Shown: one piece after another, positions 7,821 through 26,364 of the stretch | How positions within the stretch are numbered: position 1 is the first letter of the stretch | Layout of the letters: every line of letters starts with the position of its first letter | Sequence record: ON286972 | DNA length: 64,000 nt | Source of the DNA: Escherichia phage A4 | Direction: 5' to 3' (one strand) | Made by a program: the position numbers and the translations under genes | Notes under the pieces: model-generated | The model's database searches: none | The model's input: only the letters and a program-made list of their open reading frames with translations | Told to the model about the DNA's origin: nothing

Positions 7821-8070
7821 GCAGTTTACAAATCTTTACAATTGCCAGTATTGACTTATTTTGTCAGTACTGGCATAATGTATCTATTGAAACGAACAAT
7901 TTGGCCCACGGGGTGCGGGAGTGTATCTATAGAAAAAGTAGTTTAGTACAGTTACAATTGTGCACCCTATGGGTTAGCTGTTGTCATGGGGTATATTATA
8001 CCAGTACTGGATAGTGCTGTCAATACCTTTTTTTTACTATTCAGTACTGAAAACTATTTTTAAAAAGTAC

Positions 8071-8098
8071 TTGCAAACTATGTTTAAAGGCGTATAAT
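8071..8098 (+). promoter_or_regulatory. class A promoter (first of a tandem pair)
   Basis: TTGCAA 8071-8076, TATAAT 8093-8098; exact TTCAGTACTGAA palindrome at 8040-8051 upstream. Confidence 0.55.
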
Positions 8099-8106
8099 GT
8101 TTTACA

Positions 8107-8185
8107 TCAGGACGGGGAACGAAATAAGTAACTCCCCATTAAGTAGCCCAGGAGTAAGGCACACGAAAAACTCCCCTGATAAAAT
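8107..8185 (+). other. conserved ~80-nt structured leader / candidate small RNA (copy 1)
   Basis: caggacggggaacgaaataagtaactcccc...ctcccctgat, near-identical to 18008-18085; internal GGGGA/UCCCC and AUCAGG/CCUGAU pairings. Confidence 0.4.
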
Positions 8186-8188
8186 AGT

Positions 8189-8216
8189 TTGAAAATTGTT
8201 TTTAAAAGCGTATAAT
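8189..8216 (+). promoter_or_regulatory. second promoter of tandem pair
   Basis: TTGAAA 8189-8194, 16-bp spacer, TATAAT 8211-8216; ATG 8249 follows. Confidence 0.5.
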
Positions 8217-8248
8217 ACTTACATCAACTACTGAATGAGGGTTACAAA

Positions 8249-8860
8249 ATGAAAACTATCACTACTACTACTTTCGTTATGGATTTTTCTGAATTGAACG
8301 CAGAACAAAAAACGTCAGCTATCGAACTGGTTCGGGAACGTGAAAAAAACTCAAACGACAATTATTTTTCTGAAAGTGAAATTGAATACTATAAAGAAAC
8401 AGTACTACCGGAATATGGCATTAATGACGCTGAAATACAATTCAGTGGTTTTTGGTCCCAGGGTGACGGTGCATCAATCAGTACTGACCACGTTGACGCA
8501 GTGAAGTTTTTACGCAAGGTAAGAGCATTAACTAAGTATCGCTCAATCCGTCACCTGCTGAATGAAGATGATTTGGCGATGAGTGTAAAGCGTTCGCACT
8601 CCCACTACTCGCATGAGAATACTGTAAGCGGGTACATTGAATCGGCTTACACTGATTTAACCGCAAAACAAGAAACGTTAGTTAATGAGCTTGAGGAACT
8701 ACTCACTGAAACTATTCGTGAATTATCCCGCAAGTTGTACCGTGATTTAGAGAATGCATATGAGGATCAATTCACTACTGAAAACATTACGGCACTGATT
8801 GAGGGTAACGAATATCAATTCAATGTTATTGATGGCGTAGTAGAATCAATCGAATATTAA
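8249..8860 (+). CDS. hypothetical acidic protein
   Basis: 203-aa ORF; SD GAGGG upstream; no family recognised by eye. Confidence 0.7.
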   Translation: MKTITTTTFVMDFSELNAEQKTSAIELVREREKNSNDNYFSESEIEYYKETVLPEYGINDAEIQFSGFWSQGDGASISTDHVDAVKFLRKVRALTKYRSIRHLLNEDDLAMSVKRSHSHYSHENTVSGYIESAYTDLTAKQETLVNELEELLTETIRELSRKLYRDLENAYEDQFTTENITALIEGNEYQFNVIDGVVESIEY

Positions 8861-8872
8861 TTTAAAAAGTAC

Positions 8873-8932
8873 TTGCATTGTAGTTAGATTAACGTATAAT
8901 ACTTTACATCGAGGCGGGGAATGGTTCCCGCC
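8873..8932 (+). promoter_or_regulatory. class A promoter plus 5'-UTR hairpin
   Basis: TTGCAT 8873-8878, TATAAT 8895-8900; hairpin GGCGGGGAATGGTTCCCGCC 8913-8932. Confidence 0.6.
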
Positions 8933-8950
8933 TTTACTGAGGGTTATCTA

Positions 8951-9232
8951 ATGAGCAAAGTAATTAACTATACAGTGTTAAGCAAGTCATTGTCTATTAG
9001 CCAATGTACTGATGGTTATTGGCTTTATGATGAAACGCGTGGCATGAATTTAGCTATGCAGGAGAAAACTACTGATGCGGCATATCTTAAAGCACTGGAA
9101 TACTACCAGAAGCGTTTAAAGGAAGTAGAAAACGATTATAATAACCTGAAAGCGAAAGTAGATAATTTCGTTGGTCAATTCGTTGACGATGACGAGGGGC
9201 ACTACTGCGACCGTTGCGGATCTTACAGTTAA
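8951..9232 (+). CDS. hypothetical protein
   Basis: ATG 8951 after GAGGG SD; ORF-track start 8921 lies in the leader hairpin. Confidence 0.65.
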   Translation: MSKVINYTVLSKSLSISQCTDGYWLYDETRGMNLAMQEKTTDAAYLKALEYYQKRLKEVENDYNNLKAKVDNFVGQFVDDDEGHYCDRCGSYS

Positions 9233-9249
9233 GTACTGAGGATTATCTA

Positions 9250-9453
9250 ATGAGTGATTTAATTGAACGTATCAAAGAGCTTGAAGAAAAAGAATTGCAG
9301 TTAATCGGCTTACAGAATAAAATCTATCATGATTTGGGGAGTTTTATCAATGCTTGGGATAGTGGCGATCCTGATGCGTTACCTGCTAACCGCCAGGCGA
9401 TGATCAATGATGTGCGTAGTGTCTTTGAGTATGTTTTAAAGCAATTAAATTAA
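9250..9453 (+). CDS. hypothetical protein
   Basis: ATG 9250 with GAGGA SD 8 nt upstream; no own promoter, likely co-transcribed. Confidence 0.6.
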   Translation: MSDLIERIKELEEKELQLIGLQNKIYHDLGSFINAWDSGDPDALPANRQAMINDVRSVFEYVLKQLN

Positions 9454-9462
9454 AAAAAGTAC

Positions 9463-9490
9463 TTGCAATTAGTTTTTAGTACTGTATAAT
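9463..9490 (+). promoter_or_regulatory. class A promoter
   Basis: TTGCAA 9463-9468, AGTACTG then TATAAT 9485-9490; G-rich hairpin follows. Confidence 0.55.
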
Positions 9491-9541
9491 GGTTTACATA
9501 GAGGGGGGGAAATGGTTCTCCCTGGTAATGAGGAAAATACA

Positions 9542-9763
9542 ATGGCTAATATCACTACTCTTTCCCAACTGGAAGCACTGGTTAAATCTATGCGGGAACA
9601 TGCCGACAATATCGGCGTAAAAGATCCAGCCGTTTGCTTCTGCGACGAATTGAATGATGATACCCTGGTAATAGCAGAAGTCCAGGACGTTTCTAACTAT
9701 TCCTCGCGTTACACTGGCGGTGTAGCAAATAAAGGTGACTTCTGTTTATACCTTACAAAATAA
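9542..9763 (+). CDS. hypothetical protein
   Basis: ATG 9542 after GAGGAAAA SD. Confidence 0.65.
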   Translation: MANITTLSQLEALVKSMREHADNIGVKDPAVCFCDELNDDTLVIAEVQDVSNYSSRYTGGVANKGDFCLYLTK

Positions 9764-9766
9764 CAA

Positions 9767-9798
9767 CGCGGGGAGATAATAACTCCCCGTTACTTTTT
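9767..9798 (+). terminator. rho-independent terminator
   Basis: Stem CGGGGAG/CTCCCCG with 7-nt loop, then TTTTT. Confidence 0.6.
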
Positions 9799-9829
9799 CA
9801 GTACTGAATCATTTAATAGACGGATCTCG

Positions 9830-9885
9830 GCACCCGGTGGGTTAGTGACTGTTTCGTCTTGATGTAGTAATTATGCCAGTACTGG
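9830..9885. repeat. 56-bp dispersed repeat, copy 2
   Basis: gcacccggtgggttag...cttgatgtagtaattatgccagtactgg; weaker relatives near 5745 and 7963. Confidence 0.55.
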
Positions 9886-9931
9886 ATGCACTTGTCAACA
9901 ATTATTTTTCAAATACTTTTTATTAAAATAC

Positions 9932-9959
9932 TTGCAATTAGTTTTTAAACGCGTATAAT
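9932..9959 (+). promoter_or_regulatory. class A promoter
   Basis: TTGCAA 9932-9937, TATAAT 9954-9959; GGGGGAGCGGTTCCCC hairpin follows. Confidence 0.55.
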
Positions 9960-10006
9960 GTTTTGCATAGGGGGAGCGGTTCCCCTGGTAACTAAGGAAT
10001 AAGAAA

Positions 10007-10243
10007 ATGGTCGAACAAATCAAATCAACGTCTTCGAATGTAACGGGAACGGTAGCACACTTTACTAGTGATGAATCGCGGGGCGTTCCCTATTGTGCTG
10101 TACATGTAAACACTGAGGGTAACTACTGGTTTACGGTTTACGGATCATATTCATTTGGACGGCCAGGGCATCAAAAAATTCTGGATAAAGTACAGCCAAC
10201 GGGTAAAAATATCACTGCTGAAATGTTTTATAAAAAATCATAA
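10007..10243 (+). CDS. hypothetical protein
   Basis: 78-aa ORF; SD TAAGGAA. Confidence 0.7.
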   Translation: MVEQIKSTSSNVTGTVAHFTSDESRGVPYCAVHVNTEGNYWFTVYGSYSFGRPGHQKILDKVQPTGKNITAEMFYKKS

Positions 10244-10328
10244 AGTACTTGATAATAGTTTTTAGTACTGTATAATATTTTACATCGCAAGGGGGGAGCG
10301 GTTCCCCCTGGTAACTAAGGATAATCAA

Positions 10329-10628
10329 ATGAAAATTGCAATCATCGCCCTGGCTTTATCTGTTTCCTCTTTCGCTGTTAATGCGTCGTTAGATGTAAGT
10401 AGTGAAAAATTCATTCAGTGCACCGTAGCAATGACAGATGAAAGTACTGGCGAGATTGTTTTAAAGGATTTAGAGATCCAGCCAGAAGCATTTAAAAACG
10501 GGCCGTTCCATGAAGAAGACGAAAAAGGTAGCACGACAATTTATTACGATGCAAGTACTAAACGCGGTTCGGTCACTGTTATGGATACTGAGAAAGTAAC
10601 TCATACTGGCGTTATTAATTGCCGTTGA
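10329..10628 (+). CDS. small secreted/periplasmic protein (predicted signal peptide)
   Basis: N-term MKIAIIALALSVSSFAVNA has positive-hydrophobic-AxA signal-peptide shape. Confidence 0.65.
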   Translation: MKIAIIALALSVSSFAVNASLDVSSEKFIQCTVAMTDESTGEIVLKDLEIQPEAFKNGPFHEEDEKGSTTIYYDASTKRGSVTVMDTEKVTHTGVINCR

Positions 10629-10649
10629 TAGATACTACGGGGTAACATC

Positions 10650-10880
10650 ATGACTAAGCGAATTGTTTTACTTAACGAAAGCAGTACTACACAACTACTT
10701 AACGCCGTGCATTATGATATTGAAACGAGCGTTAATCTTATCAGTACTGTAGTACTGTTGGACACTGGAAAGGTCGCCAATGATAAAGCGATTGCAGGTA
10801 TACTAACGGATCTTGAGCCTGGTAGCAGTGCACCAATAACGTTAAATGGTAAAGTGTTTAACATTTTACTTACTGATTAA
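10650..10880 (+). CDS. hypothetical protein
   Basis: 76-aa ORF 20 nt after previous stop. Confidence 0.6.
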   Translation: MTKRIVLLNESSTTQLLNAVHYDIETSVNLISTVVLLDTGKVANDKAIAGILTDLEPGSSAPITLNGKVFNILLTD

Positions 10881-10886
10881 GTACAT

Positions 10887-10909
10887 AGCCCACCTGGTGG
10901 GCTTTTTTG
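10887..10909 (+). terminator. rho-independent terminator
   Basis: Stem AGCCCAC/GTGGGCT, loop CTG, then TTTTTT. Confidence 0.7.
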
Positions 10910-10962
10910 TTTTTGTAGTATCGTAGTACTGAGATACTTTGAAAATAGTTTTAAAAAAGTAG

Positions 10963-10990
10963 TTGACATTACCGCAGAAAAGCGTAGAAT
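10963..10990 (+). promoter_or_regulatory. sigma70-like promoter
   Basis: TTGACA 10963-10968, 16-bp spacer, TAGAAT 10985-10990. Confidence 0.5.
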
Positions 10991-11113
10991 GTATTACATC
11001 AAGACGGGGAGCACTAAGTAGACCGCCAGTAAGTCGAACGAAAAACTGGACACGTCGAGAAAACTTTGATACACTAATAAACGTAAACTAAACTTTAATT
11101 GAGGATTTATAAA

Positions 11114-11596
11114 ATGGCTAATGTAAAATCATTCATCAAAGCACTGGTAGCAAATGAAACTAACGTAGCGGCAGAGATCCTGGCTGAACTGGATAACGAT
11201 ACCATGAAAGCGGTACGCAATAATTTTAACATCGCTTACAGTACTGCGAAAGAACTACAAGCAAATAAAGCGGCGGCACTTGAAGCTGAGAAGGCAGCAC
11301 GCGAAGCAGAATTGCAGAAAACGATTGAAGATATTAACGCCGCCGTCGCTGGGCTTGATCTGGAAGTAGTTACCGAAATGGCACGTAAAGCCCTGGCAGC
11401 GAAATACGGGGAAGACAAGCCAGAAGTAAAAGCTAAAAAATGGATTCAAGAACGTGTGACGGTTGTACTGGATAATGGCGAGGAATACACTGTACCAGTA
11501 CGCGGTAACTGCATTGCCGTAGTACTGGATGCTATCAAAGAAAGCGGTTTGACCCGTGAGGAATGGATCGAAGCTCATCGCAAAGTTGAAGCATAA
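11114..11596 (+). CDS. hypothetical Ala-rich protein
   Basis: ATG 11114 after GAGGA SD; 160 aa. Confidence 0.7.
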   Translation: MANVKSFIKALVANETNVAAEILAELDNDTMKAVRNNFNIAYSTAKELQANKAAALEAEKAAREAELQKTIEDINAAVAGLDLEVVTEMARKALAAKYGEDKPEVKAKKWIQERVTVVLDNGEEYTVPVRGNCIAVVLDAIKESGLTREEWIEAHRKVEA

Positions 11597-11617
11597 CAAT
11601 TAAAGTACTGAATCACT

Positions 11618-11645
11618 AGCCCACCTTAAACAGTGGGCTTTTTTG
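11618..11645 (+). terminator. rho-independent terminator
   Basis: Stem AGCCCAC/GTGGGCT, 8-nt loop, then TTTTT. Confidence 0.7.
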
Positions 11646-11798
11646 TGTCTATAGTATTCCAGTCCACTAGCACCGCCTAGAATCGATTCTAACGCATTAA
11701 ACTGATTATCTGATGTATCGCCCTAGCTGGTGGCGTTAAGGTCGTTAGAACGCGATTGAGGGCGATTAAAGTATTTTATAAAAACTAATAAAAAGTAC

Positions 11799-11826
11799 TT
11801 GCACGATTAAGAGATTAGCGTATAAT
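11799..11826 (+). promoter_or_regulatory. class A promoter
   Basis: AGTACTTGCAC -35 region, TATAAT 11821-11826. Confidence 0.5.
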
Positions 11827-11871
11827 TAATTACATCAAGGCGAGACACCTTAACTAACTGAGGATATAAAG

Positions 11872-12024
11872 ATGAATACTTATGAACTGGATTGTTTCAC
11901 TTTACAAGTAATGTCAGTATGCAGCAAGAAAGATTGGTCATCAAAGGAATTTAAAGCAGTTATCGCGTGTGCAAAACACGGCAAGACTATCAATGAAACG
12001 GCATCAATCATTGATAAACTTTAA
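11872..12024 (+). CDS. hypothetical small protein (50 aa)
   Basis: Hand-translated MNTYELDCFTLQV...; SD TGAGGA upstream. Confidence 0.5.
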   Translation: MNTYELDCFTLQVMSVCSKKDWSSKEFKAVIACAKHGKTINETASIIDKL

Positions 12025-12032
12025 AAAATAGT

Positions 12033-12061
12033 TTGACAATAGTTTTAAGTACTGACATAAT
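12033..12061 (+). promoter_or_regulatory. sigma70-like promoter
   Basis: TTGACA 12033-12038, 17-bp spacer with AGTACTG, CATAAT 12056-12061. Confidence 0.55.
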
Positions 12062-12094
12062 ACATACATCAACTACTGAATAGGAATCAAAACA

Positions 12095-12322
12095 ATGGCT
12101 ATCGTAATCACTCGCGTAACTGGTACTACTGGCACTGCTTCAACTGTTGCTGTAATTACTAATAAGAAAGGTGCGGAATTACATTTTGCAATGAATACCT
12201 GGGCGGTGAATGAGTTCGGTCAGTGGGCAAGTGTAGAATACATTGAAACCTATCAAGTGCCATCGATTAGCTTAACTGATTTAGGTGTAGAACGTATCCT
12301 TTGCCTGGATGAATTAAATTAA
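12095..12322 (+). CDS. hypothetical protein
   Basis: 75-aa ORF; SD AGGAA. Confidence 0.7.
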   Translation: MAIVITRVTGTTGTASTVAVITNKKGAELHFAMNTWAVNEFGQWASVEYIETYQVPSISLTDLGVERILCLDELN

Positions 12323-12330
12323 AAAAGTAC

Positions 12331-12358
12331 TTGCAAAGTAAATCGGATAAAGTATAAT
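12331..12358 (+). promoter_or_regulatory. class A promoter plus hairpin
   Basis: TTGCAA 12331-12336, TATAAT 12353-12358; hairpin GGGGAGAAATGATTCTCCCC follows. Confidence 0.55.
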
Positions 12359-12408
12359 ACATTACATCAAGGGGAGAAATGATTCTCCCCACTAAGAGGA
12401 AACTAAAA

Positions 12409-12552
12409 ATGAAAACTTGTCAATGTGGTAAAAAATCTATTACTGGTTTAAAGCGGGGCGTTGCTCTTTGCCAGTATCATTATAATGCTCAAGTATGGGG
12501 TAAAGAGTGGGCCGACCAGGTTGAAGCATCAAAGAAAGCAAAAAGTAAGTAA
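12409..12552 (+). CDS. small Cys-rich protein (47 aa), possible zinc ribbon
   Basis: Hand-translated MKTCQCGKK...CQYHYNAQ; CxC...CxxH spacing. Confidence 0.5.
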   Translation: MKTCQCGKKSITGLKRGVALCQYHYNAQVWGKEWADQVEASKKAKSK

Positions 12553-12571
12553 AAATATTATCACAGTACTA

Positions 12572-12600
12572 TTGACATAGTTTGATAGTACTGGCATAAT
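12572..12600 (+). promoter_or_regulatory. class B promoter flanked by inverted AGTACT half-sites
   Basis: CAGTACTAT-TTGACA-17 bp-CATAAT, with ATAGTACTG inside the spacer. Confidence 0.6.
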
Positions 12601-12633
12601 AGATTTTATCAAGACAACTAAGAGGAAACAAAA

Positions 12634-12846
12634 ATGGCTATCATTACTAAAATCAAAGTAAACAAAACACTGGTTAAGCTGGAACAAGTGAAAGCAGGTT
12701 ATAAAGTATCTTGGTGCGGTATGTATCGGACGTTCGCAGAGGTTGACGATGCAATCAAGTACTACACTGATACGGTTGCTAACTTTGTTCGTGCTGATGT
12801 AGTAATGGCAGTGGCAACACATAAAGCAGCGAAAGAAAGTAAGTAA
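12634..12846 (+). CDS. hypothetical protein
   Basis: 70-aa ORF; SD AGAGGAAA. Confidence 0.7.
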   Translation: MAIITKIKVNKTLVKLEQVKAGYKVSWCGMYRTFAEVDDAIKYYTDTVANFVRADVVMAVATHKAAKESK

Positions 12847-12865
12847 AATTATTATCACAGTACTA

Positions 12866-12894
12866 TTGACATAGATTGATAGTACTGGCATAAT
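12866..12894 (+). promoter_or_regulatory. class B promoter
   Basis: Near-identical copy of the 12572 cassette. Confidence 0.6.
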
Positions 12895-12937
12895 AGATTT
12901 TATCAAAACAACACATATTAATTTAAGGAATACTAAA

Positions 12938-13282
12938 ATGGCTAACATCAACACTATCGCATCACAAAATATCAACCTGTCTTCTGTTGAAGTTGTACAT
13001 ATTGCCGCTCGGCGTTGGTTCCAGGCTTCATATGGTAACACTTATTTCTCTTTAAGTGTAGACGTTGAAATTGATGGTAATTTTATTGAAGTAGTAAACG
13101 TGCCGTTCCAATATGGATACGGGGATCACTTTGACACTGTAGCAATGGAAGAATTTAGCAAGGTTATTAATATGGAAGGTAAAGAGTTTTTACGCGGTTC
13201 TTATCTTTCCCGTTTTTGCCGTGACAATAATATCACTGTTTACAGTTCGGTAACTGATGTTAAACGCAAAAAAGATCTTTAA
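12938..13282 (+). CDS. hypothetical protein, paralog of gene at 18785
   Basis: 114 aa; shares GNTY...YGYG and C-terminal DVKRKKD with 18785..19108. Confidence 0.7.
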   Translation: MANINTIASQNINLSSVEVVHIAARRWFQASYGNTYFSLSVDVEIDGNFIEVVNVPFQYGYGDHFDTVAMEEFSKVINMEGKEFLRGSYLSRFCRDNNITVYSSVTDVKRKKDL

Positions 13283-13362
13283 TTAGCTTTACTTTATGCA
13301 GATACTTTGATATAGTGTCTGCATAGGGGAAAGAAATTAAATTAACTTAAGAGGATAGTATA

Positions 13363-13632
13363 ATGAAAAATATCAGTACTTTAATCGATGCAGGTACGCA
13401 TGTTCGTCGGTCTATGGTTGCAACCAGCACTACAAAACAAGTAGCAAGCGGTTATCTTGTATTTGTACACGATGGAAAACTCCTGGAACGTTCAATCAAT
13501 TTTGATGTTAAGAACAATTGTCGTTTTATTATCTTTAAGCGTGAGCAATATAAAATTGATTTACCAGCGAAGCCCATTAGCGGGGCGTACAACGTGCAAT
13601 CATTGTTTGAGCGTCAACCATACACCTATTAA
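13363..13632 (+). CDS. hypothetical protein
   Basis: 89-aa ORF; SD AAGAGGA. Confidence 0.65.
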   Translation: MKNISTLIDAGTHVRRSMVATSTTKQVASGYLVFVHDGKLLERSINFDVKNNCRFIIFKREQYKIDLPAKPISGAYNVQSLFERQPYTY

Positions 13633-13683
13633 TCAAAACAACGTTAGCGGTTGATTTGGGCCGCTAATTTTGAGGATAATACT

Positions 13684-13854
13684 ATGAATGTTAATCAAGT
13701 ACTAAATGAAGTTGAAAGCATCATTAAACCAATGAAACGTATTGATGCTATTCCTACGCCGGAAGAATGCAGACTATACGAACAATACAGCGTAGAACAA
13801 GCCCAGGCGATGGCCCGTATCCGTCCGGTTGCTAGTACTGATAAGGCGGCGTAA
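13684..13854 (+). CDS. hypothetical small protein
   Basis: ATG 13684 after GAGGA SD. Confidence 0.55.
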   Translation: MNVNQVLNEVESIIKPMKRIDAIPTPEECRLYEQYSVEQAQAMARIRPVASTDKAA

Positions 13855-13897
13855 TATTCTTACTGTACAGGATAAGATCGACATCTTAAAGGTTAAT

Positions 13898-14065
13898 ATG
13901 TATGTGATTGATGCCGTACCTGGTAAAGTATTTGCATACGATGATTCTAATCGCAGTCCTTTCTATTGTAGTCATGTAGTTGGATACGTGCCGTTAGCGT
14001 ATGTTATTGAAAGAGTGGTTGATGCAGCATACAATCATTTTTTAGAAAATAATACTTGCAATTAG
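13898..14065 (+). CDS. hypothetical small protein
   Basis: ATG 13898 after AAAGG. Confidence 0.5.
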   Translation: MYVIDAVPGKVFAYDDSNRSPFYCSHVVGYVPLAYVIERVVDAAYNHFLENNTCN

Positions 14066-14083
14066 TTTTTAGTACTGTATAAT
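14056..14083 (+). promoter_or_regulatory. class A promoter
   Basis: TTGCAA 14056-14061, TATAAT 14078-14083. Confidence 0.55.
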
Positions 14084-14137
14084 GTTTTACATCGAGGGGG
14101 GGGGAAATGGTTCTCCCCACTAATTAAGGAATATGAA

Positions 14138-14284
14138 ATGAAAGCATCAAAAAAGAGTAATACTAAGAAAGCATGTTCACCTTTCGCTGGGGTATTCCCT
14201 TTACGTTTCGTTGATGAAGTGGTTTCCTACCCGCCGGGCCTTACTCCTGAGATGGTAGAAAGTTTGCGTAAATCTAAAAAATAG
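14138..14284 (+). CDS. hypothetical small basic protein (48 aa)
   Basis: Hand-translated MKASKKSNTKKACSPFAG...; SD TAAGGAA. Confidence 0.5.
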   Translation: MKASKKSNTKKACSPFAGVFPLRFVDEVVSYPPGLTPEMVESLRKSKK

Positions 14285-14287
14285 TAC

Positions 14288-14315
14288 TTGCAATTAGTTT
14301 TTAGTACTGTATAAT
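14288..14315 (+). promoter_or_regulatory. class A promoter
   Basis: TTGCAA 14288-14293, TATAAT 14310-14315; GCGGGAACTATTCCCGC hairpin follows. Confidence 0.55.
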
Positions 14316-14369
14316 GTTTTACATCGAGTGCGGGAACTATTCCCGCCTAACTCAAAGAGAGAAAATATA

Positions 14370-14612
14370 ATGGAAACCATTTTAATCAAAGACACTGCTA
14401 CTACTGTAACTTATGATAATGATTGTATTATCCCTGGCACTGATTACGGCGAACGTGTACCCGTTCAAGTCGAGATTGATACTACATACATTGACCAGGC
14501 TGAAAAGTGTATCACTATTGTTATTGGTGAATATCGTTTTCTACCAGAAGAGATCCAAAAATGGCAGTATATGATTGACCGTGCGAAATTAGTCGCACAA
14601 AGTTTAAAATAA
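14370..14612 (+). CDS. hypothetical protein
   Basis: ATG 14370 after AAAGAGAGA SD. Confidence 0.65.
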   Translation: METILIKDTATTVTYDNDCIIPGTDYGERVPVQVEIDTTYIDQAEKCITIVIGEYRFLPEEIQKWQYMIDRAKLVAQSLK

Positions 14613-14693
14613 TACTTGCAATTAGTTTTCAGTACTGTATAATGTTTTACATAGAGGGGGGAAATGGTTCTCCCCGATACTAGGAGAATCAAA

Positions 14694-14846
14694 ATGAAAC
14701 AATATAATGCTCGGTTTGATGTTACTATCGGCAACGGCAAAGGTCAATTTTCTTTCAGTACTCGCCGCAGTTATACAGAAAACTTCCTGCGTAATTGTGC
14801 ATTGACCGCCGCACAAATTAAACATTACTTCCAGGCTAAAAAATGA
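14694..14846 (+). CDS. hypothetical small protein
   Basis: ATG 14694 after TAGGAGA SD. Confidence 0.6.
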   Translation: MKQYNARFDVTIGNGKGQFSFSTRRSYTENFLRNCALTAAQIKHYFQAKK

Positions 14847-14932
14847 AATCATTGGCTTATTACAGTTCGGCGGTGATCGGTGCATTGATCGCGGCATTGT
14901 TAGTAACCTATCTATTCTTTATGGTGATTTAA
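14843..14932 (+). CDS. 29-aa hydrophobic peptide (single predicted TM helix)
   Basis: ATGA overlap with upstream stop; MKSLAYYSSAVIGALIAALLVTYLFFMVI. Confidence 0.45.
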   Translation: MKSLAYYSSAVIGALIAALLVTYLFFMVI

Positions 14933-15070
14933 ATGAATCCTAACGGTTTAATTTACAGTACTCCTAAAACGAAAGCAGATAAAGCGAAAGCACGTAAAGC
15001 GAAAGTAAAGGAGTACATCAAGCAAGGCATGACGCGAAAAGCAGCAGTACTAAAAGCTAAAAATAAATGA
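14933..15070 (+). CDS. hypothetical small Lys-rich protein (45 aa)
   Basis: ATG immediately after TAA of the upstream peptide; MNPNGLIYSTPKTKADKAKARKAK... Confidence 0.45.
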   Translation: MNPNGLIYSTPKTKADKAKARKAKVKEYIKQGMTRKAAVLKAKNK

Positions 15071-15155
15071 AAAAAGTGGTTGACTTCGGTCAGCCATTTT
15101 GCTATTATATATTCATTGAGAGATAGCTCACTAGCCCACAGGGTGCGGAAGTGTA
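15071..15155 (+). repeat. composite hairpin/promoter/conserved-box module, copy 1
   Basis: A-run, hairpin with TTGACT -35 in its arm, 17 bp, TATTAT; then box AGCCCACAGGGTGCGGAAGTGTA. Confidence 0.55.
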
Positions 15156-15189
15156 AATAAAATATATCAATCTAATAAGGAGTACTACA

Positions 15190-15372
15190 ATGTTTAAACC
15201 AATCGAACTAGCGGCATCACATATCATCGGTAAACCTGCCGTTATCATACGCCAGGAAGACGTAAACCTATGGATCATCTATCTAGACATGAAAGAGATT
15301 GAGCGTCACGATGATTTCAAATCAGCGTCAATTGCGTATGATATGGCGTTATGTGAGTATCAAAGAGATTAA
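15190..15372 (+). CDS. hypothetical protein
   Basis: 60-aa ORF; SD TAAGGAG. Confidence 0.65.
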   Translation: MFKPIELAASHIIGKPAVIIRQEDVNLWIIYLDMKEIERHDDFKSASIAYDMALCEYQRD

Positions 15373-15392
15373 AAGTATTTTGCAAAAAGTAC

Positions 15393-15420
15393 TTGCATTG
15401 TACTTAGAATCAAGTATAAT
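15393..15420 (+). promoter_or_regulatory. class A promoter
   Basis: TTGCAT 15393-15398, TATAAT 15415-15420; GGGGAAACGGTTTCCCC hairpin follows. Confidence 0.55.
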
Positions 15421-15472
15421 GTTTTACATAGCAAGGGGAAACGGTTTCCCCTGGTAACTAAGGAAACATATC

Positions 15473-15814
15473 ATGACTATTGCAATTGCTCAATCTAACT
15501 TTGAAAACGAATTCATCGCTCAGGCACTGCGTTTAAATGATGGTCGGGCCGAAATCAATTACGGTTTCAATTCAGGCGGTTGTGAAAACTATCAGTACTT
15601 TATAACTGCTGATGGCGGTGTCCTGGGTATCAATACAGTTATTGTAAACATTCAGAAAATTAATTTCAATGATCCAGACGATAGCCAGTTTTACATTGTA
15701 GGCGTTGACGTGAACTATGAGGATGACTCACTAACTGATGATTGCACTGGAGAGAAGTTAGAAAGTGCATACGGTGAAGATGATTATCAGTCCGGTCCAG
15801 AAGATTTCGAATAA
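15473..15814 (+). CDS. hypothetical acidic protein
   Basis: 113-aa ORF; SD TAAGGAAA. Confidence 0.7.
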   Translation: MTIAIAQSNFENEFIAQALRLNDGRAEINYGFNSGGCENYQYFITADGGVLGINTVIVNIQKINFNDPDDSQFYIVGVDVNYEDDSLTDDCTGEKLESAYGEDDYQSGPEDFE

Positions 15815-15827
15815 TATTAAAAAATAG

Positions 15828-15855
15828 TTTGACAATAGATTATAGTACTGTATAA
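15828..15855 (+). promoter_or_regulatory. sigma70-like promoter
   Basis: TTGACA 15828-15833, TATAAT 15850-15855; hairpin GGGAAGTACCAGTACTTCCC follows. Confidence 0.55.
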
Positions 15856-15916
15856 TAGTTTACATCAAGGCACGGGAAGTACCAGTACTTCCCTACTAAC
15901 AAAGAGAGAAAACAAA

Positions 15917-16129
15917 ATGGCTAATATCCGCACTGTACTGAAAAATGCAAAACAAGTTTTATTTTCTGATCATGAAAATTTCAACAAGGATATCACAGGC
16001 GTTCGGAATATCAAAGATGTAAAAAATGTTATGGGTATCTATTGCAATATGAAACGTGTTGGTACTTTCGGCGACAAGGTACTATACCAGGCAGGGGATT
16101 ACAATTTTACACTGACTATCATTAACTAA
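15917..16129 (+). CDS. hypothetical protein
   Basis: 70-aa ORF; SD AAGAGAGA. Confidence 0.7.
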   Translation: MANIRTVLKNAKQVLFSDHENFNKDITGVRNIKDVKNVMGIYCNMKRVGTFGDKVLYQAGDYNFTLTIIN

Positions 16130-16148
16130 AAATATTATCACAGTACTA

Positions 16149-16177
16149 TTGACAAAGATTGATAGTACTGACATAAT
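16149..16177 (+). promoter_or_regulatory. class B promoter
   Basis: CAGTACTAT-TTGACA 16149-16154, CATAAT 16172-16177. Confidence 0.6.
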
Positions 16178-16220
16178 AACTTTTATCAAGACAACGCATA
16201 TTAACTTAAGGAATACTAAA

Positions 16221-16400
16221 ATGGCTATTATCGCAAAAACTGAAATCATCGGTCTGGATTCTATCATCATGACGTTTGAAGAACAAAAAGGTATGTATGT
16301 AGTTTCCTATGGTGATTATGTTCGGGAGTATGAAACGGTAGACGAAGCCTTTGAAAGTTACATTCGCCAGGTGAATAAAGCATACGACGACTACCGCTAA
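16221..16400 (+). CDS. hypothetical small protein
   Basis: ATG 16221 after TAAGGAA SD; weak resemblance to 12634 gene (MAII...). Confidence 0.6.
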   Translation: MAIIAKTEIIGLDSIIMTFEEQKGMYVVSYGDYVREYETVDEAFESYIRQVNKAYDDYR

Positions 16401-16427
16401 AATATATTACCAGTACTATTAAAGATA

Positions 16428-16455
16428 TTGACAACGTTTGATAGTACTGTATAAT
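16428..16455 (+). promoter_or_regulatory. class B-like promoter
   Basis: TTGACA 16428-16433, 16-bp spacer, TATAAT 16450-16455. Confidence 0.5.
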
Positions 16456-16499
16456 AAGTTTTATAAACAGTAGTTAACTTAACCTAAGAGAGAAACAAA

Positions 16500-16643
16500 A
16501 TGATCGCACTGGATTCATTCATCGACGCAGTACTGGCAAAAACTGGCGAAGATCTGACCGCAGAACAATACGCAATGATCGAACAATGCCAGCAAGACGG
16601 TAAATCGGTGAAAGATACTGTTAAGATTATCCGCAAGATGTAA
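16500..16643 (+). CDS. hypothetical small protein (47 aa)
   Basis: Hand-translated MIALDSFIDAVLAKTGEDL...; SD AAGAGAGA. Confidence 0.5.
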   Translation: MIALDSFIDAVLAKTGEDLTAEQYAMIEQCQQDGKSVKDTVKIIRKM

Positions 16644-16649
16644 GATTAT

Positions 16650-16680
16650 AGCCCACTGGTTAACGCTGGTGGGCTTTTTA
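16650..16680 (+). terminator. rho-independent terminator
   Basis: Stem AGCCCAC/GTGGGCT then TTTTT. Confidence 0.65.
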
Positions 16681-16763
16681 GTATATACCTATCCGATAGT
16701 ACTACAAAATAGATTAGCTCGTTAGAATGCGATTGAGAGCGTTTAAATAAGTACTAAAAAGTA

Positions 16764-16791
16764 TTGACAGTACTGAAAGATAGTGTATAAT
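16764..16791 (+). promoter_or_regulatory. sigma70-like promoter
   Basis: TTGACA 16764-16769, TATAAT 16786-16791. Confidence 0.55.
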
Positions 16792-16840
16792 GTTTTATAT
16801 CAAGGGGAGGATAACCCTTCCCAGTACTGAGGAAAACAAA

Positions 16841-17029
16841 ATGGAACAATTATCAAGTATTTTAGTACAAGATGAATACGGCAATCCAGGAAGTGCTATC
16901 ATTGTTCGGGGTAATAAGGCAACATTTGTTATTGCTGGTGGACCTGTACAGCGTAGCATTAAAAACAATGCCGTTACTATTAATAATGTACGCTATCGTT
17001 TAGATAAAGAATTAATTCATAAACTTTAA
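16841..17029 (+). CDS. hypothetical protein
   Basis: ATG 16841 after TGAGGAAAA SD. Confidence 0.65.
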   Translation: MEQLSSILVQDEYGNPGSAIIVRGNKATFVIAGGPVQRSIKNNAVTINNVRYRLDKELIHKL

Positions 17030-17115
17030 AAAAGTACTGGACAATAGATTATAGTACTGTATAATAGTTTACATGAAGGGGAGAAATGATTCTCCCCAGT
17101 ACTGAGGAAAGAAAA

Positions 17116-17328
17116 ATGCAAGGTCAACTAATCGTTCGTAAATGGTCTGATACTAACGAAAAACCGTGGGATGTACAATACATCGCCCCCAATGGTGAAT
17201 CCAGATATCAACCTGGCGTAACGCATAGTACTGAGCAATTCGCCGCTGCTCACCGTGAACGCCTGTTACAATCCATGCAGCAAGGCTTCGGTGAAAAATT
17301 CATCCAAGATCATTGGCTGAAAGATTAA
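17116..17328 (+). CDS. hypothetical protein
   Basis: ATG 17116 after TGAGGAAAGAAAA. Confidence 0.65.
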   Translation: MQGQLIVRKWSDTNEKPWDVQYIAPNGESRYQPGVTHSTEQFAAAHRERLLQSMQQGFGEKFIQDHWLKD

Positions 17329-17336
17329 AAAAGTAT

Positions 17337-17364
17337 TTGACAAAGTATCACAGTACTGTATAAT
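17337..17364 (+). promoter_or_regulatory. sigma70-like promoter
   Basis: TTGACA 17337-17342, TATAAT 17359-17364; hairpin GGGGAGAAGTTTTCTCCCC follows. Confidence 0.55.
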
Positions 17365-17415
17365 TAATTACATCAAGGGGAGAAGTTTTCTCCCCACCAT
17401 ATAAGGGTAACAGTT

Positions 17416-17505
17416 ATGCACATGAATCCGTTCATAGTAGTAATTGCAATCATTATGGCAGTACAGGCCGTATTAGTTTACTTAAGCAAAGCAGGAGTTA
17501 TCTAA
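17416..17505 (+). CDS. 29-aa hydrophobic peptide (single predicted TM helix)
   Basis: MHMNPFIVVIAIIMAVQAVLVYLSKAGVI; SD TAAGGG upstream. Confidence 0.45.
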   Translation: MHMNPFIVVIAIIMAVQAVLVYLSKAGVI

Positions 17506-17506
17506 A

Positions 17507-17680
17507 ATGATCCATGTAGAATTGTCAGTACTGAAAGATCTGTTTTATCGGATGGGTACTACTGGCGAATATCCGAAGGGTGATACCGCAAAACTTTTTG
17601 TATCACTCGACTTATGGCAACGCGAACAATTAGTAACGTCCTGGCGTAAAGGTAAAGCCGACAAGGGGGTCGTAGCATGA
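17507..17680 (+). CDS. hypothetical small protein (57 aa)
   Basis: ATG 1 nt after upstream stop; MIHVELSVLKDLFYRMG... Confidence 0.45.
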   Translation: MIHVELSVLKDLFYRMGTTGEYPKGDTAKLFVSLDLWQREQLVTSWRKGKADKGVVA

Positions 17681-17826
17681 AAGAATACATTTTCGAAGTT
17701 ACGTTTTTGGGTAAAGGTATGCATCAACTGATACGGTCCAGCGGATACAGTGTTAACCAGGCGTGGAATAACTTAAAACAAATGTACCCGAACGCTATCA
17801 CATATCGCAACCCTCGCGAGGCATAA
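17677..17826 (+). CDS. hypothetical small protein (49 aa)
   Basis: ATGA overlap; MKEYIFEVTFLGKGMHQL... Confidence 0.45.
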   Translation: MKEYIFEVTFLGKGMHQLIRSSGYSVNQAWNNLKQMYPNAITYRNPREA

Positions 17827-17835
17827 AATAAATTG

Positions 17836-17918
17836 AAAAAAGGGATTGACTCCGGTCAGTCCCTTTGCTATTATATACGCATAGACAAAAACTAGCCCAC
17901 CGGGTGCATAAATGTATC
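17836..17918 (+). repeat. composite hairpin/promoter/conserved-box module, copy 2
   Basis: Hairpin GGGATTGACTCCGGTCAGTCCC 17842-17863 (TTGACT 17846-17851), TATTAT 17869-17874, box AGCCCACCGGGTGC. Confidence 0.55.
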
Positions 17919-17974
17919 TATTGTTTGCTGGTGGCCTGTATTGTCTAGTACTGAAAACTATTTTAAAAAAGTAC

Positions 17975-18002
17975 TTGCATTGTACTTAGAATCAAGTATA
18001 AT
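17975..18002 (+). promoter_or_regulatory. class A promoter (first of tandem pair)
   Basis: TTGCAT 17975-17980, TATAAT 17997-18002. Confidence 0.55.
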
Positions 18003-18007
18003 GTTTT

Positions 18008-18085
18008 ACATCAGGACGGGGAATGAAACAAGTAACCCCGTTAAGTAGTCCAGGAGTAAGACATACGAAAACCTCCCCTGATAAA
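18008..18085 (+). other. conserved ~80-nt structured leader / candidate small RNA (copy 2)
   Basis: Near-identical to 8107-8185, with compensatory-looking changes. Confidence 0.4.
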
Positions 18086-18090
18086 ATAGT

Positions 18091-18118
18091 TTGACAATAG
18101 AAAGTAAACGAGTATAAT
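18091..18118 (+). promoter_or_regulatory. second promoter of tandem pair
   Basis: TTGACA 18091-18096, TATAAT 18113-18118. Confidence 0.55.
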
Positions 18119-18150
18119 ACTTACATCAACCACTGATAAGGAAACATAAA

Positions 18151-18426
18151 ATGCGGATTCTACTGACAGCTAACGAAATCGAACAAGTACTGACTACTAA
18201 CCTGCAAGACTGGAAACGTGAAGCAGATATCCAGGCGGTTCAATGGCTTAACGATAAGTTAACGCCGGATGACTTAAGCAAGATTGTAGATCCTCAATTC
18301 TACGAAGATATTCACGACACCGCGTTAAGCGTCGAGGATGTACTTGATAAGCACTACATTGATACTGATTTACAGGTTTACGGTCGTAAAAACTTTATCA
18401 CTATTCACGACATTTACAATACTTAA
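18151..18426 (+). CDS. hypothetical acidic protein
   Basis: 91-aa ORF; SD TAAGGAAA. Confidence 0.7.
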   Translation: MRILLTANEIEQVLTTNLQDWKREADIQAVQWLNDKLTPDDLSKIVDPQFYEDIHDTALSVEDVLDKHYIDTDLQVYGRKNFITIHDIYNT

Positions 18427-21145: not shown

Positions 21146-21231
21146 AAAAAGGGATTGACTCCGGTCAGTCCCTTTGCTATTATATATTCATTGAGAGATA
21201 ACTCACTGACCCATAGGGTGCGGAAGTGTAT
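21146..21231 (+). repeat. composite hairpin/promoter/conserved-box module, copy 3
   Basis: Hairpin GGGATTGACTCCGGTCAGTCCC 21151-21172, TATTAT, box CCCATAGGGTGCGGAAGTGTATC. Confidence 0.55.
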
Positions 21232-21359
21232 CTATTATATAAGTATTCAGTACTGAAAACTATTTGATAAAAAGTACTTGCATTGTACTTAGAATCAAGT
21301 ATAATGTTTTATATCGAGAGGGGGAAATGGTTCTCCCTGGTACATTAAGGAATAAAATC

Positions 21360-23904: not shown

Positions 23905-23986
23905 AAAAAGGGATTGACTCCGGTCAGTCCCTTTGCTATTATATACGCATAGACAAAAACTAGCCCACAGGGTGCATAGGTGTATC
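23905..23986 (+). repeat. composite hairpin/promoter/conserved-box module, copy 4
   Basis: Hairpin GGGATTGACTCCGGTCAGTCCC 23910-23931, TATTAT, box AGCCCACAGGGTGCATAGGTGTATC. Confidence 0.55.
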
Positions 23987-24137
23987 CAAAATATATAGTT
24001 AATAACGGTGAGTAACTATCTGCTGGTGGGGTGAAAACTATTAATAAAAAAAGTATTGACAAAGTATATCAGTACTGCAATAATGTATCTCGTAGGGCGG
24101 CAATGGTGCGACGGCCCACAAAGTTAGGAGATTCAAA

Positions 24138-24470
24138 ATGACTACTTCAATCGCTATCGTTAAAGCTTTCATCCGTACTAATGTTTCCTCTGTATTCATC
24201 GACGGCCTCGACCGTAACGTAGAATACTCAATCATTATCGCACAAACGGCAAACGGTTCTCGGTACATCCTGAATGATAGTGAAGCAAATCACTACTACT
24301 TCACTAAAGCCACTGGCTTTAAACGCATCGATGCTGATGTAGTATACGCTAAGATGAATAAGCTGGTAGATAAGATTAACGCTAAAGGTACTATAGATTT
24401 ACAGTACTGGACCGAAACCGATCCAGAATATGGATCTCACCGCTACCTGAATCCAGGTGTTAAAATGTAA
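24138..24470 (+). CDS. hypothetical protein
   Basis: 110-aa ORF; SD TAGGAGA. Confidence 0.7.
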   Translation: MTTSIAIVKAFIRTNVSSVFIDGLDRNVEYSIIIAQTANGSRYILNDSEANHYYFTKATGFKRIDADVVYAKMNKLVDKINAKGTIDLQYWTETDPEYGSHRYLNPGVKM

Positions 24471-24559
24471 AAAGTACTTGCATAGTACTTAGATTCAAGT
24501 ATAATGTTTTTCATAGAGAGGGGGAAATGGTTCTCCCTCCTAAATTAAGGAGTTTTATC

Positions 24560-24961
24560 ATGACCTTCTCAATCACTTCCTTCGCTGACGTTTTAGTACT
24601 GGCTCGGACTTTTGGTAAAGATGCACTGGAGTACGCTGTAAGTAATGGCACTATCCAACCGGAACAGTGCCGCATCATTGGAAACTGCAAACGTTGGGCG
24701 GTATCCAATACTATTGCACTGGAAAACTTCAACGATGGTAACAATGAGTATTCAGTTGATGCAGTATTCGAAGCCGTTGATCTTGGCGGTATCTATAACA
24801 CTAACCTAAATGATGTGCGTATCGTTCGCACGGGGTTCGGTGCTTATGATGTATCTATCCGTGAAGCTATGAACACCGGATACATTAGTAAGGACTTACT
24901 TGCTCACATCATGCAGCTATGGACGGAACGTAACGAAGCACGCACTATCTTAGGGCTGTAA
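24560..24961 (+). CDS. hypothetical protein
   Basis: ATG 24560 after TAAGGAG. Confidence 0.65.
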   Translation: MTFSITSFADVLVLARTFGKDALEYAVSNGTIQPEQCRIIGNCKRWAVSNTIALENFNDGNNEYSVDAVFEAVDLGGIYNTNLNDVRIVRTGFGAYDVSIREAMNTGYISKDLLAHIMQLWTERNEARTILGL

Positions 24962-25029
24962 GCAATACACATCACCAAACATCATAGGCCGCTCTCTAGC
25001 GGCCTTAACTATATCAGGAGTACACACAC

Positions 25030-25239: not shown

Positions 25240-25278
25240 TGAATTAAATGATTCAGTACTAAAACTATTAGTCAGAAA

Positions 25279-26298: not shown

Positions 26299-26301
26299 CA
26301 C

Positions 26302-26330: not shown

Positions 26331-26364
26331 GTTTTTTCATATATGAACCTATGGAATTTGCCCT

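Follow-up and report, generated by a model that had tools for sequence, protein, structure and literature searches.

Positions 1 to ~24,500 of the stretch of Escherichia phage A4 DNA analysed here (record ON286972; the whole stretch of 64,000 nucleotides (nt) is called the window) hold a dense array of ~35 strong, near-consensus sigma-70 early promoters on the + strand. The window comes from an Asteriusvirus-type jumbo coliphage and is, over this region, 95-98% identical to slurp01, PBECO4, phAPEC6 and others. Most promoters of the array are followed by a stereotyped leader, ACAUCGAGG-GGGGAA..UUCCCC, in which a 5' hairpin precedes a Shine-Dalgarno sequence (SD) and an ATG. Only three of the ~35 early units carry a pseudoknot element, whose copies we call E1, E2 and E3. 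Our analysis indicates that these are, with high probability, copies of a conserved non-coding RNA domain of the + strand, which the host's sigma-70 RNA polymerase transcribes from strong early promoters, beginning at +1 or a few bases from it. Promoters were called by a promoter scan and a regular-expression listing, and all copies of the element lie on the + strand. E1, E2 and E3 are composed as follows, P1 to P3 being paired regions.

8043..8098, + strand: upstream early promoter of E1, with an A/T-rich UP-like block, -35 TTGCAA 8071-8076, -10 TATAAT 8093-8098 and a 16-nt spacer
8106..8180, + strand: E1 RNA element, 75 nt, from folding, the T7-family covariance model (13 bits) and covariation
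8106-8111 with 8175-8180, + strand: P1 of E1, AUCAGG/CCUGAU
8114-8118 with 8133-8137, + strand: hairpin P2 of E1
8140-8146, + strand: internal loop UAAGUAG of E1
8146-8148, + strand: pseudoknot 5' strand of E1, GCC
8151-8154 with 8171-8174, + strand: P3 of E1, GGAG/CUCC
8155-8170, + strand: apical loop of E1, including the pseudoknot 3' strand GGC 8158-8160
8189..8216, + strand: downstream promoter of E1, TTGAAA-16-TATAAT, driving gene 8249-8860 (203 aa, phrog_5162)
17947..18002, + strand: upstream early promoter of E2, with a UP-like block, -35 TTGCAT 17975-17980, -10 TATAAT 17997-18002 and a 16-nt spacer
18010..18082, + strand: E2 RNA element, 73 nt, T7-family covariance model 19.4 bits, E 1.4e-3
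18010-18015 with 18077-18082, + strand: P1 of E2
18017-18021 with 18036-18040, + strand: P2 of E2, CGGGG with CCCCG
18042-18048, + strand: UAAGUAG of E2
18048-18050 with 18060-18062, + strand: pseudoknot of E2, GUC with GAC
18053-18056 with 18073-18076, + strand: P3 of E2, with the apical loop at 18057-18072
18091..18118, + strand: downstream promoter of E2, TTGACA-16-TATAAT, 12/12, driving gene 18151-18426 (91 aa, phrog_14947)
10887..10990, + strand: context of E3, with the intrinsic terminator of the preceding unit (10887-10903 and a T-run) and the promoter TTGACA 10963-10968 / TAGAAT 10985-10990
10998..11070, + strand: E3 element, diverged, 30 bits, E 3.5e-7 with the T7-like-only covariance model
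10998-11002 with 11066-11070, + strand: outer pairing of E3, AUCAA with UUGAU
11003-11006 with 11053-11056, + strand: P1 of E3, GACG with CGUC, aligned to the P1 of the model
11015-11021, + strand: UAAGUAG of E3
11021-11023 with 11033-11035, + strand: pseudoknot of E3, GAC with GUC
11026-11029 with 11046-11049, + strand: P3 of E3, CCAG with CUGG, and its loop 11030-11045
11101-11105, + strand: SD downstream of E3, followed by the ATG at 11114 and gene 11114-11596 (160 aa, phrog_27871)

By using a 29-nt degenerate probe drawn from the element, we found matches in the window only at 8104-8132 and 18008-18036, with 0.00 expected from 100 shuffles. In pairwise alignment the elements E1 and E2 are 89% identical, and the promoter block 5' of them is duplicated as well (8043-8075 and 17947-17979); the conserved module of upstream promoter, element and downstream promoter covers ~220 bp, and the similarity stops at two unrelated start codons, ATG 8249 and ATG 18151. 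A preliminary description made from the sequence had reported two near-identical copies of a structured leader, each between an upstream promoter and a second promoter driving an unrelated gene. The copies are indeed real and at the places it gave, the four promoters are confirmed, and the AUCAGG/CCUGAU and GGGGA/UCCCC pairings that it proposed are present in the minimum-free-energy folds of both E1 and E2. Its location of the copies stands and only the ends had to be refined, to 8106-8180 and 18010-18082. The third copy, the homology to the interval between the T7 promoters A1 and A2 and the pseudoknot core had escaped it. Further copies, which it had proposed to look for, do exist: the third and diverged one, E3, lies in the window at 10998-11070. 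E3 shares ACAUCA-GACGGGGA, UAAGUAG, AGUAAG and ACGAAAAACU with E1 and E2; it has no P2 hairpin and no second promoter, and runs directly into an SD and ATG.

The -10 and the initial transcribed sequence of these units resemble those of T7 A1 (GATACTTACAGCC followed by ATCGAGAGGGA), where the start site is annotated. Since they have this homology and a 7-nt spacing, transcripts would start at A8106 (E1), A18010 (E2) and A10998 (E3), in which case the outer helix would begin at +1. Across the array, the -10, the initial transcribed sequence and the hairpin are closely like T7 A1 (GATACTTACAGCC, then ATCGAGAGGGA..TCCC), which suggests that a promoter-plus-5'-hairpin cassette may be common to jumbo phages and T7. 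In vB_Ec-M-J, a record with determined ends, the orthologues of E1 and E3 lie a few kb in from the left end, under the direct terminal repeat that the record annotates. On its + strand the element has many stop codons and no ATG.

The best-conserved part of E1 and E2 is the pseudoknot core (8140-8174 and 18042-18076), rather than either of the pairings named in the preliminary description. Its topology runs G-N-C, 1-2 nt, P3 5' strand, (A)UAA, G-N'-C, a 10-nt A-rich loop and P3 3' strand, and it describes a covariation-supported H-type pseudoknot with an A-rich third loop, closed by the outer helix P1. Throughout the family the core parts are an internal loop with UAAGUAG and G-N-C, a P3 of 4-5 bp and an apical loop of ~16 nt, (A)UAAG-N'-C-NN-ACGAAAAA. 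UAAGUAG with G-N-C is found in E1 (8140-8148), E2 (18042-18050), E3 (11015-11023) and 27/27 distinct homologues, the apical loop is conserved in all copies, and ~25 invariant unpaired nucleotides are retained across phage families. An extra hairpin, P2, occupies the 5' junction in E1, E2 and the Munch-type copies. The sequences of P1 and P3 differ widely between lineages while remaining complementary:

P1: GUCAA:UUGAC (T7), GUCAUC:GAUGAC (K1F), GUCAGA:UCUGAC (SalP_792), GUCGGU:ACCGAC (L023)
P1, further forms: GAUUAG:CUAAUC (LIMElight), GACG:CGUC (E3), GACGG:CCGUC (LTH01), AUCAGG:CCUGAU (E1, E2)
P3: GGAG:CUCC (E1, E2), CCAG:CUGG (E3, Munch), CCUG:CAGG (T7-likes, Hallingskeid), ACUUG:CAAGU (LTH01)

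The structural case rests on covariation, single-sequence thermodynamics being weak throughout (z -0.5 to -2.1); E1 and E2 fold weakly better than their shuffles (z -2.1 and -1.5). First, in the alignment of T7-like sequences (A5), 95% of the P1 and P3 cells are paired, a share that falls to 16-33% once the partner is slid; both sides change in five of the six P1 pairs within the T7-likes, and RNAalifold recovers P1 and P3 unaided. Second, in all lineages P3 is 93.9% paired and 4/5 of its pairs change on both sides. Third, in the model-guided alignment (A6) the pseudoknot and P3 together are 95.8% paired, against 19-40% when slid, and P3 and pseudoknot pairs rank top in a blind mutual-information scan. 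The tertiary pair N:N' joins the base after UAAGUAG to the base after UAAG in the apical loop, each flanked by an invariant G and C; it is A-U in 16, U-A in 7, C-G in 3 and C.A in 1 of the 27 distinct sequences. Its state is C-G in E1, U-A in E2 and A-U in E3, and U-A had separate origins in the E2 type and in a subgroup of Kayfunavirus. G.U pairs (6 where P3 begins at its base, others in P1 of CR8 and P2 of 121Q) are compatible with the + strand only, which argues for RNA and not duplex DNA.

E1 and E2 differ at 9 aligned positions, made of 7 substitutions and a 2-nt indel. Two of these nine are the compensatory change of the tertiary pair, C8147/G8159 in E1 and U18049/A18061 in E2, and the remaining ones fall in loops or at the base of hairpin P2. 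Differences between the copies thus keep pairing rather than break it, a point on which the preliminary description had made its proposal depend. Analysed alone, the E1/E2 subgroup gave no covariation in RNAalifold because its sequences are too similar. RNAalifold also proposed a small inner hairpin in the apical loop (U32-A39, C33-G38 of A5), which we rejected; the pseudoknot is preferred to it because the hairpin is broken in two sequences, where the pseudoknot pair becomes U-A. In A6, the spacer base 5' of UAAGUAG (column 9) correlates with the third base of the P3 5' strand (column 26), which is already paired in P3 (G-C 13, C-G 7, A-U 1, U-G 1, C-C 1); this is either a lineage effect or an alternative pairing. 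Three homologues depart in detail. EmilieFrey (L009 437-467) has C.A at the pseudoknot pair, plausibly an intermediate between C-G and U-A; in muut (L002 3009-3084) the 5' G-run is longer by one G and the 3' C-run by one C; and CMSTMSU (L006 401-485), in a record flagged UNVERIFIED, is without the CAG before P3 and one C after, its P3 being symmetrically shortened.

An independent search points to the same three copies. We built a covariance model from 11 T7-like phages only and ran it over the whole window with filters off. The top three matches were E3 (30 bits, E 3.5e-7), E2 (19.4 bits, E 1.4e-3) and E1 (13 bits, E 0.18), and there was no other credible match in the window. The low score of E1, which is 89% identical to E2, is due to the inserted P2 hairpin that blocks alignment of P1. 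The same model also finds the copies of Justusliebigvirus, Vequintavirinae, and Munch-like and Erwinia jumbo phages.

With blastn, E1 retrieved copies ~90% or more identical in Asteriusvirus and in unrelated phages of ~145 kb, namely Justusliebigvirus (outra, muut, EmilieFrey) and Vequintavirinae (A7_1, A73, W70, A5-4). There the layout is always promoter-element-promoter-gene, even where the flanking promoter sequences differ. E3 retrieved T7-like Yersinia phages, the jumbo phages Munch, 7t3 and fENko-Kae01, Erwinia phage Hallingskeid and the Vequintavirinae LTH01. A T7-like core of 55 nt used as query matched 587 phage records, mostly of Autographiviridae (Teseptimavirus, Teetrevirus, Kayfunavirus, Drulisvirus, Limelightvirus, Elunavirus, Caroctavirus and other genera), and in 14/14 Autographiviridae loci examined its place is after the first host-polymerase promoter and before the second. 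In T7 itself the core occupies ~540-595, between A1 (start 498) and A2 (start 626), that is ~45-100 nt downstream of A1. All copies examined have the same strand as a sigma-70-type early promoter located at most ~100 nt upstream, and the carriers seen are virulent enterobacterial phages only.

Outside phages the element is practically absent. Neither the E1 form nor the T7-like form had a blastn match in 5,426 complete E. coli genomes; 72,556 plasmids gave nothing real (one chance match), and bacterial species representatives and the genome collection gave 1 real match, a phage-like contig of a metagenome-assembled genome, together with 5 chance matches. Exact-pattern scans of IMG/VR returned only 121Q, a looser scan added phiA1122 and two real copies (L023, L027), and a metagenome scan gave 2 real and 3 chance matches. 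E1-type copies stay ~90% or more identical across three phage lineages despite differing flanks, and because of this their distribution is consistent with a promoter-plus-RNA unit that may move on its own between phages. Taken together, the element is under strong purifying selection, phage-restricted and horizontally mobile. Several GenBank records place hypothetical-protein coding sequences over it (A71_225 of A7_1 on the opposite strand, gp0.1 of K1F, 0.01 of CR44b), which are probably mis-calls, because the sequence is stop-rich and covaries as an RNA. Within outra_150 (L001 1925-1941) and muut_141 (L002 2200-2216), both hypothetical-protein genes, 17 nt match the apical-loop consensus (ATAAGGCATACGAAGAA), probably by chance.

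We also searched for known classes. Rfam 15 gave no match over the whole window at gathering thresholds, and a local search at E <= 10 gave noise only (best 17 bits against a cutoff of 40); at E <= 1, nothing fell on the element in the T7-like, Erwinia and Vequintavirinae loci. ARAGORN found no tRNA or transfer-messenger RNA gene in the window. The boxA consensus GCTCTTTAACAA matched the window 8 times at <= 2 mismatches, against 8.5 expected, and never near the elements. Homology to the put RNAs of phage HK022 was sought by running the T7-like model on HK022 24,000-31,000, which should span PL/PR; the best score was 8 bits (E about 1), and Rfam is without a put model. Ribozymes (hammerhead, pistol and others) were considered by eye and with Rfam, and were discarded as the CUGAUAA and CGAAA strings are without a three-way-junction arrangement. 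We likewise discarded a mini open reading frame (AGGAG, 8 nt, ACG AAA AAC UCC CCU GAU AAA AUA GUU UGA): its start is ACG in every copy, its presumed SD, AGGAG, forms the 5' strand of P3, for which other lineages have CCAG, CCUG or ACUUG, and the frame is not kept. A ToxI-like type III antitoxin was rejected too, the copies being single, 2.9 and 7 kb apart and not in a tandem array.

What the element does may be approached from its relation to the gene behind it. The preliminary description had supposed a short non-coding RNA or an attenuator-like element. Of this, a structured non-coding RNA made from the first promoter is supported by the covariation, the G.U pairs and the stop-rich sequence, a discrete species of ~75-100 nt being a possibility only, whereas an attenuator is unsupported because there is no terminator and no SD-sequestering structure: we found no intrinsic terminator at 8180-8249, 18082-18151 or 11070-11114, no U-tract or SD-sequestering alternative between element and downstream ATG, and no stable SD pairing in folds of the full leaders (z -0.8 to +0.5). 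An attenuator or riboswitch-like leader, in which alternative pairings of GGGGA with either UCCCC decide on entry into the downstream gene, could draw on the two UCCCC segments of E1 and E2 that are able to compete for GGGGA, and the H-type pseudoknot with an A-rich loop is common among aptamers. We nevertheless regard it as very unlikely, since no terminator hairpin with U-tract follows the element, no pairing extends to the SD or ATG, neither E3 nor any T7-like copy has the second UCCCC, and no riboswitch of Rfam matches even at E up to 10. Moreover, E1, E2 and most homologues are separated from the downstream gene by a full second promoter, so that this gene does not depend on read-through. 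In most contexts this promoter stands 0 to ~35 nt from the element; downstream genes differ between copies and between phages; and in T7-like phages a consensus rrn-type boxA (GCTCTTTAACAA) stands after the last host-polymerase promoter (T7, L028; K1F, L029; Kc166A, L032; phiA1122, L016) and the pseudoknot after the first only. Because of these features, and because only 3 of ~35 units carry the element, the data favour an RNA that functions by itself over one that controls the adjacent gene. It is just as improbable that the repeat acts at the DNA level, as a promoter cassette serving as a recombination substrate that shuffles small early genes, with a spacer lacking any RNA function. The conserved ~220-bp module does take in both promoters, the region is a dense array of similar promoter cassettes, and the copies flank different genes (L011 and L013 combine another promoter spacer with an E2-type gene, and 121Q_b has another downstream gene). 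But the flanking promoters are fully diverged in A7_1 and the T7-likes while the transcribed core is kept, the stems change sequence yet stay complementary, the tertiary Watson-Crick pair covaries and the G.U pairs are strand-specific. Recombination homology alone accounts for none of this RNA-type evidence, and may be a by-product of the repeats.

Among the remaining explanations, the one that we tentatively prefer, on the grounds of position and conservation, is that the element is an immediate-early folded RNA serving as ligand or decoy for a conserved enterobacterial factor. Host polymerase would make the folded domain, presumably in large amounts, in the first seconds of infection; the domain would bind a conserved enterobacterial component, such as a protein of the transcription, RNA-decay or defence machinery, acting either as the 5' domain of a long transcript or once released endonucleolytically (the T7 leader is set free by RNase III cutting at R0.3), and it would leave the gene downstream of it uncontrolled. 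Several points weigh against this proposal. In no lineage examined does a copy have a terminator of its own or a recognisable 3'-processing signal behind it, so that a discrete small RNA is hypothetical; E3 is simply the 5' portion of an mRNA leader. Searches of E. coli genomes and plasmids found no complementarity or similarity to host sequence, the sequence points to no binding partner, and all functional statements derive from position and conservation. In addition, the nested helices are invariant within the E1/E2 subgroup, where AUCAGG:CCUGAU never varies, and P1 and P2 of this subgroup are suggested by folding (z -1.5 to -2.1) and by comparison with AUCAA:UUGAU of E3. The main rival, which we hold to be rather unlikely, is a put-like cis action on host RNA polymerase, in which the nascent pseudoknot would bind the elongating enzyme and make it faster, pause-resistant or Rho-resistant; with its help, transcripts from the first promoter would cross a long untranslated leader and a multi-gene early unit, and they might also aid in pulling the genome into the cell, as transcription by host polymerase does in T7. 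Like putL, the element opens close to or at the +1 of an early promoter; transcription always continues from it into downstream genes, no terminator of its own being present, and intrinsic terminators follow each copy of the window (9768, 11618 and 19622). Its conserved single-stranded nucleotides and compact tertiary fold suit a protein surface, the carriers seen are all virulent, each copy examined is just 3' of its sigma-70-type promoter, and a -10 element comes soon after most copies, paralleling the sigma-dependent pause reported to aid folding of putL (PMC9378689). However, T7-like transcripts from A2/A3 or P2 are without the element while boxA, a bona fide cis signal, follows all promoters; 3 of ~35 early units of the window carry it; the distance to the next promoter varies, leaving no fixed pause geometry; and there is no similarity to put (<= 8 bits in the HK022 early region), whose architecture differs. 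In purified systems, termination of T7 A1 transcripts at the early terminator TE is efficient, which argues against a put-like suppression of intrinsic terminators. Less probable still is a protective, cap-like 5' structure whose fold, with an outer helix starting at +1, would hide the 5' end from RppH and from RNase E sensing or scanning and so stabilise the long transcript; the element would then be a more elaborate form of the simple 5' hairpin found behind nearly all other early promoters here. About 30 other leaders of the window open with the 5'-terminal hairpin ACAUCGAGG-GGGGAA..UUCCCC; E1 and E2 start with the bases of those leaders and their P2 resembles the hairpin, the pseudoknot holds the usual hairpin position in E3, LTH01, Hallingskeid and Munch, and the second-promoter leaders of E1 and E2 are without any 5' hairpin. 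Yet a stable helix would suffice for protection, and neither the covarying tertiary pair nor the ~25 unpaired positions that never change would be needed; the T7 motif is preceded by a different 5' hairpin and starts at ~+43, and the T7 leader is released from the mRNAs by RNase III cleavage at R0.3, and thus cannot stabilise them.

The neighbourhood of the elements offers some further observations. In a Pfam search, the gene behind E3 (11114-11596) matched the papain-fold toxin Tox-PL-2 below threshold (19 bits, cutoff 25, E 0.0016). This match is the lone functional hint among the neighbouring genes and is not reliable; for the other neighbouring genes of the copies, Pfam and PHROG searches gave no informative function. 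A second repeat family of the form GCCCACNGGGTGC(N5)TGTATCTAT occurs in 5 copies, against 0 expected:

7904-7930, 15134-15160, 17895-17921, 21209-21235 and 23963-23989, + strand: copies of the second repeat family

Four of the five copies have a promoter ~45 nt upstream, with its -35 TTGACT inside a terminator-like hairpin (AAAGGGATTGACTCCGGTCAGTCCCTTT, then GCTATTATAT), and the copy at 7904 is preceded by an ordinary promoter (7851-7879). The first promoters of E1 and E2 each have a copy shortly upstream. This family may be another small non-coding unit. Just upstream of E1, in ~140 bp free of open reading frames, a minus-strand promoter with a 12/12 extended -10 (8023-7995) converges with the + strand promoter 7851-7879; the two could specify a sense/antisense RNA pair.

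In the open literature, searches by exact sequence and keyword returned only the T7 A1-A3 fragment used as template or reporter; older, subscription-only T7 papers were outside this scope, and an early description of a hairpin at this place is possible there. The element goes unmentioned in genome papers on related jumbo phages. As far as this could be tested, it represents an undescribed RNA family of a familiar general kind, the structured phage leader RNA, with an architecture of its own and an unexpectedly wide spread that includes T7. That the pseudoknot is nearly unchanged in many Autographiviridae genera and also occurs in jumbo, rV5-like and phAPEC8-like phages implies that an RNA function is under selection at the very start of infection. 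It is possible, if doubtful, that an overlooked functional RNA is encoded by the A1 leader of T7 and by early leaders of several unrelated virulent enterobacterial phages. Made within seconds of DNA entry, it would either reprogram the host RNA polymerase that transcribes, and perhaps draws in, the arriving genome, or neutralise a conserved host factor or immune sensor before any phage protein is made. If so, infection would begin with the pseudoknot as its first product, an RNA "gene" that phages exchange horizontally. An action on RNA polymerase would place it beside put as a second, independent class of RNA that regulates elongation without a factor; a decoy role would imply that many virulent phages have to cope with some host factor before translation starts. 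The A1 region of T7 is among the most used templates of transcription biochemistry and T7 early expression is a textbook system; the element merits annotation as a non-coding feature and can be tested directly in T7.

Among known systems, putL and putR of HK022 are alike in being structured RNAs of ~70 nt just 3' of a phage early promoter, transcribed by host polymerase, with a tertiary structure (a triplex in put, a pseudoknot here) and no need for a protein encoded beside the RNA. The put RNAs have two long stem-loops arranged in a V, a triplex in stem I and a -10-like element nearby (PMC9378689). The element, by contrast, is one stacked helix with an H-type pseudoknot and shares neither sequence nor structure with them. 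As regards position, it too lies 3' of an early promoter and is followed by terminators, but put stands upstream of everything that it antiterminates, whereas a second promoter, whose transcripts omit the element, usually intervenes here. put binds the zinc-binding domain of the beta' subunit of RNA polymerase and suppresses pausing and termination in cis; for the element such an action is a proposal only. The lambda nut and rrn boxA/boxB sites are also short RNA signals, those of phage lying in early leaders, and T7-likes have a boxA in the same leader region; the element itself has no boxA, and its loop ACGAAAAA is not carried on a boxB-like 5-bp hairpin. T4-type promoter-early stem-loop (PeSL) cassettes, reportedly described by Arbiol, Comeau and Krisch in 2010 as a terminator stem-loop upstream of a promoter in which DNA homology matters, resemble it as regulatory cassettes repeated among small early genes of a hyperplastic region, with gene shuffling between phages. 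A repeated cassette with shuffled flanks is indeed seen here, but the conserved part is transcribed downstream of the promoter and the RNA-type covariation of the core, including the pseudoknot, is unexplained by DNA homology. In architecture, the preQ1-I and SAM-II riboswitches and the T4 gene 32 leader pseudoknot come close, being 5' leader structures of 35-55 nt with two short stems, a first loop of 1-2 nt and an A-rich third loop able to lie in the minor groove; the element differs from them in having no Rfam match and no expression platform. Finally, phage decoy RNAs such as pseudo-ToxI and the CRISPR-repeat-like anti-CRISPR RNAs mimic host RNA (ToxI, CRISPR repeats), whereas the element has no detectable host counterpart and is not tandem. 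Like it, however, they are small non-coding RNAs of virulent phages that spread horizontally, and an early neutralising of a host component is what is proposed for both.

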